Source of the DNA: a virus
Lineage: Duplodnaviria > Caudoviricetes
DNA: 64,000 nt
Virus record (IMG/VR): IMGVR_UViG_3300026549_000036
Reading direction: 5' to 3' (one strand)
Shown piece by piece: positions 2,259 through 60,762 of this stretch (its first letter is position 1; each line of letters opens with the position of its first letter). The notes below the pieces were generated by a model. That model did not search any database, had not been told where the DNA came from, and saw only the letters and a program-made list of their open reading frames with translations. Made by a program: the position numbers and the translations under genes.

Positions 2259-2648
2259 ATGGCACTTGGGAACAAATTAACTAAACAGAAAGTATGCGAT
2301 TACCTTAGAAAAACAGGTCTATTCTGGGAACAGTATGGGGATGGTTGGTTTTTCACCAAACCCGACTGGATGCAGGATTGGCAAAAATATACTTGTACTA
2401 TTTTTGAAGTACGAACAAAATACTTAGTTGTTCCCAAGATGTTTGAGTTGTATAAAGATGGTTCAGTAATGACTCATTACGATTGTAAGAACCAAATTAC
2501 TTACAATGCGTTACCAGAGAAAACTTTATATGAACTGTTGGACTATTACATTGAAGAATACAAGAAGGCTATTGAGCCAGCACCTTTAATGTATAAGAAC
2601 TATATAGAAAAACAGAAACTTGAAAACATTGACAAAGATTTTAAATGA
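2259..2648 (+). CDS. hypothetical protein, DF-tail family
   Basis: ends KLENIDKDFK. Confidence 0.7.
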   Translation: MALGNKLTKQKVCDYLRKTGLFWEQYGDGWFFTKPDWMQDWQKYTCTIFEVRTKYLVVPKMFELYKDGSVMTHYDCKNQITYNALPEKTLYELLDYYIEEYKKAIEPAPLMYKNYIEKQKLENIDKDFK

Positions 2649-3157
2649 ATTTCGCATTAAACTATAAAGGAACCACAACTAGCACAAAAGGAATATGCGT
2701 TATGAGTATGGATAAATGCTATCAGTTTAGTTTGCTTGATGGGATTGACAGAGAATTTGAACAAGATAAAAAATCTGTAAATGCTTATTTGAGTAAACAT
2801 CCAAAATTGGAAAAGAGAAAAGGTAGACCCGGTTGCTATTTCTTGAAGGGCTATGATTTCATTGAGAGCGAAGCAATTAAACTAGGTTCAACTGCTTGTT
2901 ATTTTGGTGATATTTATTGGACCTATGACCTTAAACAGTTTTCAAAGAACTACAAAGAAAAAAGGGTTCACTTCCAAAACTCCAGTTGGAAAGGTTCCGG
3001 TGCTAGCAGAATGTTTTATACATATCTCTATCCTGAAATAATTGACGCTTTGATTGACAGAATGTGTAAGAACGCAGATGCTATCAAAGAAATTGCTCAG
3101 TACCCAAACAAATATAAAGAAAAAGTTAAACTTGATAAAATGCAAGAGGATTTCTAA
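2645..3157 (+). CDS. hypothetical protein, DF-tail family
   Basis: ends KLDKMQEDF. Confidence 0.7.
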   Translation: MNFALNYKGTTTSTKGICVMSMDKCYQFSLLDGIDREFEQDKKSVNAYLSKHPKLEKRKGRPGCYFLKGYDFIESEAIKLGSTACYFGDIYWTYDLKQFSKNYKEKRVHFQNSSWKGSGASRMFYTYLYPEIIDALIDRMCKNADAIKEIAQYPNKYKEKVKLDKMQEDF

Positions 3158-3393
3158 TGACACACGAAGAAAAGAAAGAATGGTTGAGTAAGTTGGATGA
3201 TGTTATTTCCGCATTGGATGAAGCTCGCAGTGAAGTAGAAGATTTCAGTGATTTGGTAGATGACAGCATTGAAGAAAATCCTGACTTGAAGGAATGGAAG
3301 AACATTGTATTGGAGCATTTGCCAGAGAAGTGTTCGCTCAAGTTTAGATTGGATGTAGAAGAAATGCTAGAGAAGTTCAAAGGAGTTTACTAA
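3157..3393 (+). CDS. hypothetical protein
   Basis: TAATG coupling with GAGGA RBS. Confidence 0.65.
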   Translation: MTHEEKKEWLSKLDDVISALDEARSEVEDFSDLVDDSIEENPDLKEWKNIVLEHLPEKCSLKFRLDVEEMLEKFKGVY

Positions 3394-3617
3394 TGGAAGA
3401 AATTTACAACAAATTAGTAGATACCGGTTGCGAAGTAAACATCCGAAACTGTGGTGGTGTTTATGACACGATTATCAGAGTTAAGTATGGATTTGACTCA
3501 CATGATTTAGGTTGGGTTTATTTGAAGGACGGAAAGATACTTCTAATTCATATAAAAGATGATAATTTCCCTGACATAGATTCGTTTGTCAGCAAATTGA
3601 AGGAACTAAAAAAATAA
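3393..3617 (+). CDS. hypothetical protein
   Basis: AGGAG RBS, TAATG coupling. Confidence 0.65.
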   Translation: MEEIYNKLVDTGCEVNIRNCGGVYDTIIRVKYGFDSHDLGWVYLKDGKILLIHIKDDNFPDIDSFVSKLKELKK

Positions 3618-3622
3618 AATAT

Positions 3623-3652
3623 CCCGCCAAACGGCGGGTTTTTTGCTATATT
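3623..3652 (+). terminator. intrinsic terminator followed by TATATT -10 box
   Basis: CCCGCC-AAAC-GGCGGG-TTTTTT-GC-TATATT. Confidence 0.75.
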
Positions 3653-3703
3653 GCGATTATACATAAAACACATTTAGATTTTTGATAAGTTAAAAGAGGC
3701 TAT

Positions 3704-58638: not shown

Positions 58639-59433
58639 ATGAAAAAATCGCAGCTCACCAAAATCACCACAATTCTCCCGTTTGATTCTAACTATATCAA
58701 GGTGGGTAAGAACCGCAACAAGCTTTGGAATTTGATGGATTCCGAAGGCAATTTGATTAGTGAAACCTGGTTTGAAAACATTGAAAAGACAACTGACGGT
58801 GCGATTATTACGAAGGCCGAAAAGAAGGAAATGCGTTTCGTGAATGTTGGTTCTTTCAAGAAATTTAATTCTGTTCGTGAACTGGTTCCTGTTAGTGTGG
58901 TTGGTCTGATTGACATTGACACTATTGAACCGACCGAATGCTCTGGTTATGTTGCTAAGGCCTACTTCTTTGGTAAGAGAATTTACATTAAGGCTGACGG
59001 ACGAATTTTTGATAGTAACGATAATGAACTTCGCATTATGTTCAACTGTGTTGATACTCTCCGATTGAACAAGGCACTCTTGGATTTGAACAAGAAGCTC
59101 CACTATGATGGCAATTACGATTGCGAACACGGTTGGCAGGAAACTATTGACAACAAGGTTAGCATTTTCGGATTCTATTGGATTGACGATGACGAATGTT
59201 CCGTTAGCATTGGATATAACAAAGTTGATATGGATTCCGATACAAAGAAATGGACAGATGAATTAAAAATCCGTGCTACTCTCAATATGCCGAAGCGTGT
59301 TCGTGAACAACTGACCGAAAAGTGGGGTAAACCGGAATCTGGTAAAGTCGGTGAATTTAACGAAAACTACACCTGGTCTTTCACGAAGGACAAGCTTGAA
59401 TTTATCATTGACACCCTCAATAACATTGACTAA
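58639..59433 (+). CDS. hypothetical protein with WG-repeat-like N-terminus
   Basis: WNLMDSEGNLISETWFENI; AGAGG RBS. Confidence 0.65.
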   Translation: MKKSQLTKITTILPFDSNYIKVGKNRNKLWNLMDSEGNLISETWFENIEKTTDGAIITKAEKKEMRFVNVGSFKKFNSVRELVPVSVVGLIDIDTIEPTECSGYVAKAYFFGKRIYIKADGRIFDSNDNELRIMFNCVDTLRLNKALLDLNKKLHYDGNYDCEHGWQETIDNKVSIFGFYWIDDDECSVSIGYNKVDMDSDTKKWTDELKIRATLNMPKRVREQLTEKWGKPESGKVGEFNENYTWSFTKDKLEFIIDTLNNID

Positions 59434-59447
59434 TTGGAGAAAATGAA

Positions 59448-59774
59448 ATGGCTGAATGGAATGTAGATAAGTTAAAAACTATGTTGGCTCCGCTCGGTTT
59501 CTCCTGTATAGAACATACTTGGGCTTGTGAGGACAAGCCGAGAAGTTGGCTATTCAAACTTCCTCATTCAGTTCTATTGGAGTATTTCATTGTGTTGGAT
59601 AAGTATACAGGTGAAATGGGCTGTGGTGATACATTTATGGGTCACGGCAAATATATTACCTGTAACATTAATGCTATAAATTTTGATGTTATGGAGTTCG
59701 CAAGAAATTATGTTCGTACTTATAAAGAGTATTATTTTAACGAAATGAAAAAGCATTTAGACGAGGATTTTTAA
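59448..59774 (+). CDS. hypothetical protein, DF-tail family
   Basis: ends MKKHLDEDF. Confidence 0.7.
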   Translation: MAEWNVDKLKTMLAPLGFSCIEHTWACEDKPRSWLFKLPHSVLLEYFIVLDKYTGEMGCGDTFMGHGKYITCNINAINFDVMEFARNYVRTYKEYYFNEMKKHLDEDF

Positions 59775-59775
59775 A

Positions 59776-59994
59776 ATGGCTGAAGAACTTGTAACAACCT
59801 GTCCTTTCTGTGGACAGAAATTTACCGGACCAGGAAATTCAACCCGTGGTTACTGGGAAGCAAATGGAAAAACCAAAGAAGAAGATGCCAAGTTTGGCGA
59901 AACATTCCGTTGCTGTGATGATTGTAATATGAACAAAGTCATTCCAGCACGATTGATTCTTATGAGGCAGTATGATAAGCATAGAAAGAATTAG
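59776..59994 (+). CDS. small zinc-finger protein
   Basis: CPFCG...RCCDDCN. Confidence 0.7.
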   Translation: MAEELVTTCPFCGQKFTGPGNSTRGYWEANGKTKEEDAKFGETFRCCDDCNMNKVIPARLILMRQYDKHRKN

Positions 59995-60331
59995 AGAAAT
60001 TTTTGAAGCCGAAGGATTTGATGTCTTTTCAGCAAATGGTGGTTCTGTTGAATTGGTTTATCTGCCGGATAGTATGAAATATCAAGGCCGACTGATGACT
60101 ATTTCATTTGACAATTTTCAAGATGGAAAATGCATTTTTCCGAAATTCAAGATTGCTTCAAAGAACTACCACCCAAATATGAGTTACGATTATGGCGATG
60201 TTGTGGATTTGAAGATTATCAGTGAAAGTGATTTGCATCAGAAGGTTCACGATTTAATGCAAGATGCCATACTGATTAACAAACAAATTATTCAGGCAAA
60301 ACGCACAAATAAGATTAAAAAGGATTTCTAA
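59972..60331 (+). CDS. hypothetical protein, DF-tail family
   Basis: ends RTNKIKKDF. Confidence 0.7.
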   Translation: MISIERIREIFEAEGFDVFSANGGSVELVYLPDSMKYQGRLMTISFDNFQDGKCIFPKFKIASKNYHPNMSYDYGDVVDLKIISESDLHQKVHDLMQDAILINKQIIQAKRTNKIKKDF

Positions 60332-60762
60332 TGGAATTAACTAGAGATATACTTAAAGAACTAATTAAGACAAAAAATCTTGCTTGGCAGCTCCCAGTTA
60401 ATCTGAATAAGGGTGTGGTTGTAATGAAAACCATAAAGCAGTTGGAAAAGTTGGTTAAGGACCGAGTAGATGAATACGATTTTGATAACCACGAAATTTT
60501 TACATACTGGAATATGGATAAAAACAAGCCACTCTTTGACATTATCGTTACTTATGACGAAAACATAACAGGTAGTCATTTTACATACGAATTAAGTGAT
60601 TGTTCATTGTTTGGAATGTATTTGTTCCAGGATAATTCACTTTCTGTTGGAATGGAAAATGTAATTGCGCAGTTGAAGTTGGATGTTCCGAATGGTCTTG
60701 ATTATGCCAAATATGCCAAAGAGAACTTCAAAATCGCACTTGGTGATACAGATTTCGTATAA
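60331..60762 (+). CDS. hypothetical protein (weak DF tail)
   Basis: ends ALGDTDFV. Confidence 0.65.
   Translation: MELTRDILKELIKTKNLAWQLPVNLNKGVVVMKTIKQLEKLVKDRVDEYDFDNHEIFTYWNMDKNKPLFDIIVTYDENITGSHFTYELSDCSLFGMYLFQDNSLSVGMENVIAQLKLDVPNGLDYAKYAKENFKIALGDTDFV

Follow-up and report, generated by a model that had tools for sequence, protein, structure and literature searches.

The 64-kilobase (kb) stretch of DNA analysed here (hereafter, the window; virus record IMGVR_UViG_3300026549_000036) has a G+C content of ~32%, carries nearly all of its genes on the plus strand and encodes a large set of small proteins that end in a common C-terminal helix closed by Asp-Phe (the DF tag). The same window encodes a family B DNA polymerase, two N6/N4 DNA methylases, a UvsX-type recombinase, a gp41-type helicase (~31% identical to helicases of cyanobacterial and other T4-like myoviruses), ThyX, a CCA/poly(A)-polymerase-like protein and a GH10 xylanase. 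No DNA-level match to it was found in the phage collection, and its source is an uncultured T4-like jumbo phage. The nearest record, a 210 kb IMG/VR contig (G001) with an estimated completeness of 56%, overlaps window positions 1544-43367 at ~95% identity and contributes ~170 kb more. Sequence comparison identifies the host as Fibrobacter, a key fibre-degrading rumen bacterium: rumen Fibrobacter genomes encode proteins that match the phage GH10 along its entire length at 55-71% identity.

The DF tag and the genes that carry it

A DF end followed by 0-3 residues closes 51 of the 101 non-nested plus-strand open reading frames (ORFs) of the window, where ~2-3 would be expected, and the pattern [KR]xxx[ILMV]xxDF.{0,3}$ fits 42 of the 101; with Ala admitted at position -4 and a length limit of <300 amino acids (aa), 44 ORFs of 76-193 aa qualify. 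Residue-shuffled control proteins yield on average 1.7 such ends (maximum 5), and a DF-type end occurs in none of the 92 minus-strand ORFs of the window. The count of 44 is close to the approximately 46 DF-tailed ORFs reported by an earlier reading made from the DNA letters without database searches (the sequence-only reading), and the coupled arrays described there are likewise present, at ~34.8-37.2, 43.0-49.9 and 55.2-60.3 kb, with overlaps of -1, -4, -8, -11 or -14 nucleotides (nt). Aligned on Phe, the tag comprises 16 residues, K(-15)-x6-[KR](-8)-[LIM](-7)-x2-[ILM](-4)-x2-D(-1)-F(0). Thus, the earlier reading had recognized the DF end and its helix correctly but had drawn the motif too short, as it reaches back to a near-invariant Lys at -15. 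The carriers in the window, including two ORFs with degenerate tails, are as follows:

2259..2648, plus strand: tagged ORF, 129 aa, tail KLENIDKDFK (full motif)
2645..3157, plus strand: tagged ORF, 170 aa, tail KLDKMQEDF
8400..8762, plus strand: tagged ORF, 120 aa, tail KLKRISEDF (full motif)
9496..9909, plus strand: tagged ORF, 137 aa, tail RLIDMQQDFE (full motif), followed by a 264 nt gap
16860..17258, plus strand: tagged ORF, 132 aa, tail KEWKVGKDFE (relaxed motif)
17255..17605, plus strand: tagged ORF, 116 aa, tail KLNKIESDFN (full motif)
27902..28297, plus strand: tagged ORF, 131 aa, tail KEQNINEDFDED (relaxed motif), followed by a 120 nt gap
28418..28648, plus strand: tagged ORF, 76 aa, tail KKQKIAKDF
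28648..29073, plus strand: tagged ORF, 141 aa, tail RLSEMERDFYE (full motif)
29045..29446, plus strand: tagged ORF, 133 aa, tail KYESMKKDFE
31431..31961, plus strand: tagged ORF, 176 aa, tail RIKQINEDF (full motif)
34799..37241, plus strand: array 1, seven consecutive tagged ORFs of 92-147 aa (34799-35242, 35239-35595, 35595-35939, 35929-36207, 36204-36575, 36575-36946, 36939-37241), with a 58 nt gap after the last
43047..49920, plus strand: array 2, nineteen consecutive ORFs, eighteen of them tagged (87-193 aa; starts at 43047, 43367, 43693, 43979, 44359, 44817, 45382, 45663, 45944, 46335, 46708, 46983, 47349, 47613, 48276, 48640, 48947 and 49525)
48083-48364, plus strand: array 2 ORF with a partial tag and 8 extra residues (KILKLEKDFADDTNGSI)
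54042..54557, plus strand: tagged ORF, 171 aa, tail KMKKLNSDFED (full motif), with no plus-strand gene for the next 664 nt
55222-55638, plus strand: tagged ORF, 138 aa, tail KLNKMKEDF
55638-56111, plus strand: tagged ORF, 157 aa, tail KLDKMHSDFAD, followed by a 469 nt gap
56581-57123, 57120-57413, 57410-57739 and 57736-58176, plus strand: four consecutive tagged ORFs of 97-180 aa
59448..59774, plus strand: ORF, 108 aa, degenerate tail MKKHLDEDF
59972..60331, plus strand: tagged ORF, 119 aa, tail RTNKIKKDF
60331..60762, plus strand: ORF, 143 aa, degenerate tail KIALGDTDFV

In the overlapping 210 kb contig the tail is found on 132 of 396 ORFs, and the two sequences combined have 155 tagged ORFs out of 433, i.e., about a third of the proteins. 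The full 16-residue motif is C-terminal at 28 of its 29 occurrences. Among 132 tails, Lys occupies position -15 in 114 and Lys or Arg position -8 in 119, position -14 being polar; worldwide, 104 of 107 independent representatives of 50%-identity clusters have Lys(-15) as well. A test designed against circularity, anchored on K-x6-[KR]-Phi-x2-Phi near the C-terminus with D-F left out of the search, returned exactly D-F after 93 of 94 C-terminal sites vs. one of 36 internal sites. The ratio of Lys to Arg is 114:2 at -15 and 77:42 at -8 (2.8:1 in the proteome); this demand for Lys, not Arg, at one position and acceptance of either at the other points to specific recognition rather than generic charge. 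Overall, 0-10 residues may trail the Phe, with acidic extensions of 7-10 residues after DF in several relatives, and in one metagenomic family member of 186 aa (P0151) a winged-helix-like domain of 75 residues comes after the tag, making the latter internal. Such extensions and the extra domain argue that recognition does not depend on a free C-terminus.

Comparison with a relative that is 69-90% identical (L111) shows K-15, D and F to be 100% conserved over 33 orthologue pairs of tagged proteins, vs. 54-77% for the non-motif positions of the same tails. The bodies of these proteins diverge faster than the rest of the proteome (74.9% identity for tagged bodies vs. 86.3% for untagged proteins). 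Their mutual dissimilarity, as claimed by the sequence-only reading, holds for most of them: with the tail removed, only one of 1081 pairs falls below 1e-3 by BLASTP, and iterated hidden Markov models leave 137 components, 126 of which are singletons. It does not hold for one divergent family, about a quarter of the tagged set, in which 37-40 proteins have a common N-terminal helix, MTxEEFxxLxxKYGL (vs. ~6 of 215 untagged proteins), and 31 of 37 members are recovered by hhalign at >=90% probability. At the >=50% level, 5 of 111 other tagged bodies and 4 of 174 untagged controls match this N-motif family. An exhaustive profile search found 116 clusters of it worldwide, all but two of 84-138 aa and matching end to end. 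No credible Pfam or PHROG family was assigned among 128 tagged proteins, the weak exceptions being one sub-threshold TetR match and one match to a PHROG "membrane protein" family. A literature search found no paper describing the tag, which is new in its sequence and scale.

Selection on the tail and its predicted structure

Synonymous codon choice separates the constraint on the protein from that on the nucleotide sequence. Lys(-15) is encoded by AAA 87 times and by AAG 52 times (86 and 53 expected from genome usage), all six codons are in use for Leu(-7), and Ile, Leu and Met at -4 draw on all of theirs. Strong synonymous bias appears only as G at the third position of codon -2 (GAG, 35 observed vs. 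5 expected; AAG, 35 observed vs. 16 expected), which makes AGGA or GAGG 7-8 bases ahead of the overlapping start. In about 14 tails no Shine-Dalgarno (SD) core falls between positions -18 and -4 relative to the next start, and their x-D codons read AAA-GAT, AAT-GAC, CAA-GAC or TCC-GAT; this number includes eight tails (ending at 9909, 28297, 37241, 47312, 49920, 54557, 56111 and 60762) that precede gaps of 16-664 nt, so that the next start lies beyond the tail. Unbiased codons at -15 and varied ones at -7 and -4, together with a bias confined to -2, argue for a protein-level tag with a ribosome-binding site (RBS) overlaid on its two codons -2 and -1. The sequence-only reading had anticipated both the partial overlap with the RBS and the persistence of the tail in last genes of operons, and the comparison of protein- and DNA-level conservation that it proposed, now carried out, locates selection on the protein, the RBS failing to explain the tail fully. 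We therefore consider the tail, with high confidence, to be a functional protein tag.

Two explanations invoking translation rather than a partner can be weighed on the same data. The motif could be a nucleotide artefact, merely the RBS and stop/start overlap of the next gene, as suggested by ~30 junctions at which GAG/AAG-GAT-TTT-TAATG gives AGGA or GAGG at the right spacing and by the enrichment of G at the third position of codon -2. The codon analysis refutes this and leaves it practically no probability, as conservation with unbiased synonymous codons extends 45 nt upstream to Lys(-15), while Leu, Ile and Arg are written with many codons and, as noted, SD-less and gap-followed tails exist. 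An RBS or translational-coupling sequence was rejected as a candidate for the same element, the conservation being neither confined to ~15 nt before the next start nor lost where no gene follows. A cis-acting element, in which the nascent tail in the exit tunnel would modulate termination or re-initiation within the overlapping arrays, would account for conserved residues at set distances from the stop in tightly coupled genes; nevertheless, it is very improbable, given the variable register to the stop codon created by the 0-10 residues after DF, the retention of the tag on genes without a follower and the similar coupling of untagged small genes (e.g., 42754-43047 and 3157-3393). A role of the tail as a recombination handle for cassette shuffling, also raised by the sequence-only reading, appears weak: pairwise longest exact matches between tail-coding segments are 8 nt at the median and 18 at most, with none >=20, so the tail DNA is only microhomologous and its synonymous sites are free. 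Yet entire tagged genes are gained or lost exactly between neighbours when the window is compared with L111.

Structure prediction gives the conserved residues a common orientation. The AlphaFold2 (AF2) model of the 94-aa protein encoded at 45382-45663, built with 20 orthologues (mean pLDDT 77), comprises a helix alpha1 (residues 3-13), a four-stranded sheet and a 31-residue helix (residues 63-93). For the protein encoded at 8400-8762, the single-sequence AF2 model (pLDDT 52) is confident only in a 34-residue C-terminal helix and was used for that helix alone. Averaged over 155 tails, the hydrophobic moment points to 163 degrees for positions -23 to -12 and to 1 degree for positions -11 to 0; this opposition (~160 degrees) implies that the ridge of the tag faces away from the head. 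The conserved face consists of a hydrophobic ridge at -11, -7, -4 and 0, bordered by K-15, K/R-8 and D-1, and in these models the tail has the anatomy of a docking surface. Searches with the 94-aa model produced no convincing match to a solved structure, returning nothing below E = 0.28 in Foldseek, only generic alpha/beta sandwiches (Z <= 5.5) in VIA-align and only viral hypothetical proteins in the ESM Atlas. As for the modular docking tag proposed by the sequence-only reading, its modular part is backed at the protein level by the codon and anchor tests, and the one-sided, exposed conserved face on a 31-residue helix is what docking would call for.

Distribution of the tag in host genomes and other phages

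Searches for the tail in host and phage sequences, of the kind that the sequence-only reading had suggested, placed the tag in unrelated small phages and almost nowhere in Fibrobacterota genomes. Across 101 Fibrobacter and 296 Fibrobacterota genomes the tail profile gave almost no matches (seven of the 296 genomes at E<=0.05); the confirmed full-motif tags sit on low-GC DNA (a prophage in G003 and a small contig, L105), and the remaining matches are internal or tagless. A strict DNA pattern for the tag stayed at control level in five Fibrobacter genomes (8 vs. 9). A word search with the tail profile among longer proteins gave nothing, its results being crowded out by long proteins. By these sequence searches, the proteome of the host itself is without the tag.

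Outside the jumbo phage, the G003 prophage encodes two adjacent proteins of 79 and 80 aa with the complete K-15/[KR]-8/Phi-7/Phi-4/DF motif, in a region where genes for a connector, a scaffold and a transposase are found as well. When all IMG/VR contigs were scanned for the pattern, only 46 stretches were detected, the contigs dense in tags being the 210 kb one and about a dozen fragments. Two further genomes, G300 (34,610 bp) and G301 (34,489 bp), are complete by an estimate of 100%, carry direct terminal repeats and have a G+C content of 32.8%; as they are 97% identical to each other, their comparison gives no information on constraint. G300 encodes four tagged proteins, located at its two genome ends, of which those at 202-477 and 34220-34483 are paralogues (40% identity). 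The tagged end-region proteins of the small phages and of the prophage are probably early. G300 and the G003 prophage are distant kin, with terminase, portal and capsid proteins at 25-27% identity. What G300 shares with the jumbo phage amounts to tail-to-tail matches and one DUF1353 protein in a late-operon position; DUF1353 was considered as the common hub and set aside in view of this position, the wide spread of the family and its absence from the G003 prophage region. The capsid or phage-hub partner entertained by the sequence-only reading is thus disfavoured, as the tag recurs in unrelated complete phages of 34.6 kb that have no plausible hub in common with the jumbo phage.

Several observations were made alongside. 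G300 is a Fibrobacter-type phage with a 107 bp direct terminal repeat and a sigma-70-family protein of its own (L159 1245-1757). At the end of a Lys/Glu-rich protein of 69 aa from a T7-like marine podovirus (L144 6502-6708; IMG/VR 3300024428_000005), the tag is matched in full (KKYSSASEKLEILQEDF). The protein is found on at least 11 IMG/VR contigs, and its gene is flanked by a zinc-ribbon ORF and a ribonucleotide-reductase-like gene; either chance or a remote use of the handle could explain the match, which we counted as one independent case and did not use as support. Host-like metabolic genes of the window include, in addition to the GH10 xylanase (17623-19437), those for a 95-aa PQ-loop (semiSWEET-like) protein (49937-50224) and an adjoining MFS transporter (50257-51363). 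Two DUF7487 proteins with zinc-ribbon or C2H2 N-termini are encoded at 413-1570 and 51474-52583, and the absence of the latter gene at the corresponding place in L111 suggests a mobile (homing-type) insertion. A ResIII/DEAD helicase-like gene at 37300-38711 is split into ORFs of 210 and 259 aa, and L111 has a different ORF of 471 aa in its place (2167-3582). In the 210 kb contig (L009 10602-13319), three consecutive radical-SAM genes (244, 312 and 372 aa) are followed by methyltransferase- and glycosyltransferase-like genes; the group may be a DNA or nucleotide modification cluster.

Proposed docking on a common partner and the rival functions

The mechanism that we favour would operate as follows. 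Each tagged protein would end in one long alpha-helix, the first half of which packs on the variable head, while its last 16 residues project and present the hydrophobic ridge (-11, -7, -4, 0) with Lys(-15), Lys/Arg(-8) and Asp(-1). This conserved face would bind a groove on one common partner, so that a set of >150 small and probably early proteins, unrelated in other respects, would be gathered at one place or machine; the RBS of the next gene would act as a second constraint, on codons -2 and -1 only. As two unrelated phage lineages of one host genus share the tag and no plausible hub, the partner would most likely be encoded by the host. Beyond the motif, its selection, its exposure and its distribution, we infer the binding, the singleness of the partner and its host encoding, and for docking on one common, probably host-encoded partner we see about equal chances of being right or wrong.

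Early expression of the tagged small proteins is probable, judging by near-consensus sigma-70 promoters (TTGACA-17-TATATT) near the tagged arrays. The stem-loop promoters among the following elements resemble the promoter-early stem-loop cassettes of T4-type phages:

41994..42032, plus strand: sigma-70-type promoter, TTGACA-17-TATATT, with its -35 within a stem-loop, ~30 nt upstream of the operon running into array 2
38736-38778: near-consensus sigma-70 promoter with its -35 hexamer within a stem-loop
34652-34673: terminator-like hairpin upstream of array 1

Several considerations weigh against docking on a host protein. The 210 kb contig is 56% complete, the DNA analysed covers ~60% of the jumbo genome, and a phage-encoded hub could lie in the other ~40%; horizontal gain of the tagged genes by the small phages, and their retention for another reason, is also conceivable. 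A universal host hub would predict similar tags in phages of other hosts, and tag-dense contigs are very rare in IMG/VR. Both the binding and the candidate partner are deduced from sequence and models, and the early timing is read from promoter-like sequences. Finally, for the quarter of the tagged proteins in the N-motif family, the tail could partly be a fold element, because N- and C-terminal helices are both conserved there.

Extended to all carriers, the latter idea would make the tag the C-terminal helix of one hyper-divergent superfamily, kept for folding and needing no partner. The shared N-terminal helix of the 37-40 proteins, the end-to-end matches of the 116 clusters and the succession of helix, strands and long helix read from both AF2 models speak for it; even so, it is improbable, given that the conserved residues occupy the side that points away from the head, that resemblance to the N-motif family is no greater for the other 111 bodies than for untagged controls, that structural cores rarely require Lys rather than Arg together with an invariant terminal Asp-Phe, and that the second model is of low confidence. 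Association of tails with one another, with the tag as an oligomerization module forming homo- or hetero-oligomers of tagged proteins and no separate partner gene, would account for the lack of a shared hub gene; coiled-coil partners typically expose such a hydrophobic ridge, at i, i+3 and i+7, along a long helix rich in Lys and Glu, and at least two tagged genes are present in every carrier element known beyond locus scale (two adjacent ones in the prophage, four in G300). We regard this as unlikely, since just three or four core positions are hydrophobic, -14 is polar, and a strict Lys at -15 with an invariant Asp-Phe would be unusual for a generic zipper. The degron alternative of the sequence-only reading survives as a possibility, in the form of a tag (degron or stabilizer) read by a host AAA+ protease or adaptor and imposing a common lifetime on small early proteins. 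Such a role would suit an apparently transferable C-terminal element that unrelated phages of one host place on short and probably early proteins, and regulators of mobile elements are commonly protease substrates. It is nevertheless decidedly unlikely: the helix looks stable rather than disordered, the terminal carboxylate is not needed in view of acidic extensions of up to 7-10 residues after DF, and a third of the proteome would seem an expensive load for a protease. Likeness to an ssrA-type degron was examined and rejected, the Fibrobacter ssrA tag ADENYALAA having a non-polar ...LAA end and the DF tag ending in Asp-Phe with charged extensions.

The remaining candidate is the gp45-type sliding clamp of the phage itself, which in this T4-like phage could be bound by the tag as the T4 clamp is by the C-termini of gp43, gp33 and gp55. 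Those T4 epitopes consist of a short segment, both hydrophobic and acidic, on a variable, flexible linker (PMC2988020), and they resemble the DF tag as short, transferable, hydrophobic and acidic C-terminal modules that dock unrelated proteins of T4-like phages on one hub. They differ in having three carriers, where ~150 are found here, and in their linker, as the tag ends a continuous Lys/Glu-rich helix of 31-34 residues. Furthermore, the expected clamp clients of the jumbo phage carry a separate tail, L-x-x-F-F or LDFL: a second C-terminal motif, [LFW]-x-x-F-F-x, closes the DNA polymerase, both DNA methylases, a split-methylase subunit and two small ORFs, and a gp33-like ORF ends in SILDFLN. 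The ORFs concerned are:

3942..6701, plus strand: family B DNA polymerase ending in SSGLDDFFV, a comparator outside the DF set
3942-6701, 6685-7383, 8762-9499, 19514-20113, 33730-34083, 41440-41970 and 12698-13090: [LFW]-x-x-F-F ORFs together with the gp33-like ORF

These are probably clamp-binding tails, as far as their sequences tell, and on the methylases they would imply clamp-tethered enzymes; the distinct tail of polymerase and methylases argues against the phage clamp as the partner of the DF tag. No clamp or clamp loader (Pfam gp45-slide_C, DNA_PPF, AAA) was found in the window, the 210 kb contig, G298 or G299. The DF tag also occurs in phages without a detected T4-type clamp: apart from tail-to-tail matches, the comparison of G300 proteins with the jumbo proteome yields only DUF1353, and the ten of them scanned against Pfam include no gp45-type clamp. 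As 150 competitors for the site of the polymerase would, in addition, seem harmful, we consider clamp binding quite improbable. A PIP-box-like motif (Q-x-x-[ILM]-x-x-[FY]-[FY]) was also tried and rejected for the DF tag, which has Asp at the first aromatic position; paired aromatics are present in the six FF-type tails.

With docking on a common host partner as the reading retained, three other known systems offer partial parallels. The bacterial single-stranded DNA-binding protein (SSB) has a C-terminal tip D-D-D-I/L-P-F, and T7 gp2.5 and gp4 have acidic tails ending in Phe. The DF tag shares with these the combination of an acidic residue and a terminal Phe, which serves them as a docking tip for a basic-rimmed hydrophobic pocket; however, one SSB tail binds many partners, whereas here many proteins appear to bind one, and SSB-type tails are disordered and acidic and need a free C-terminus, unlike the helical, Lys-rich tag with its 0-10 residues after Phe. 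Ankyrin-repeat proteins of poxviruses, which have a PRANC/F-box-like motif at the C-terminus, and HIV Vif with its viral BC-box belong to large viral paralogue sets in which variable target-binding heads are combined with one short constant C-terminal helix docking on a host hub, which is the arrangement proposed here. Those are, however, eukaryotic ubiquitin-ligase systems with no sequence relation to the tag, and the heads described here are mostly not paralogous. Cargo-loading peptides of encapsulins and encapsulation peptides of microcompartments are short terminal peptides or amphipathic helices that similarly address diverse cargo to one protein shell, but no shell gene is common to the tag-bearing phages.

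No block of unknown function in virology is larger than the small early phage proteins, which normally have to be studied singly. With one 16-residue handle on a third of the proteome of a giant phage, a common hub of ~150 proteins could become approachable via one peptide, and the finding bears on whether phages use "variable head, constant docking tail" libraries like those of eukaryotic viruses. In a speculative extension, which we rate as unlikely, the tagged proteins would form an adaptor library whose fast-evolving heads each catch a different host protein (e.g., defence or housekeeping factors) and whose constant helix hands all these targets over to a single piece of host machinery, for instance an AAA+ protease or the apparatus of transcription or translation. 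If true, this would be the bacterial-virus counterpart of hijacking of the poxvirus ankyrin/F-box or HIV Vif type, arrived at convergently or exchanged among unrelated Fibrobacter phages. The sharing of the handle by two unrelated phage lineages of one host suggests a vulnerability specific to Fibrobacter, and the tag provides a practical marker for recognizing phages of Fibrobacter in metagenomes.

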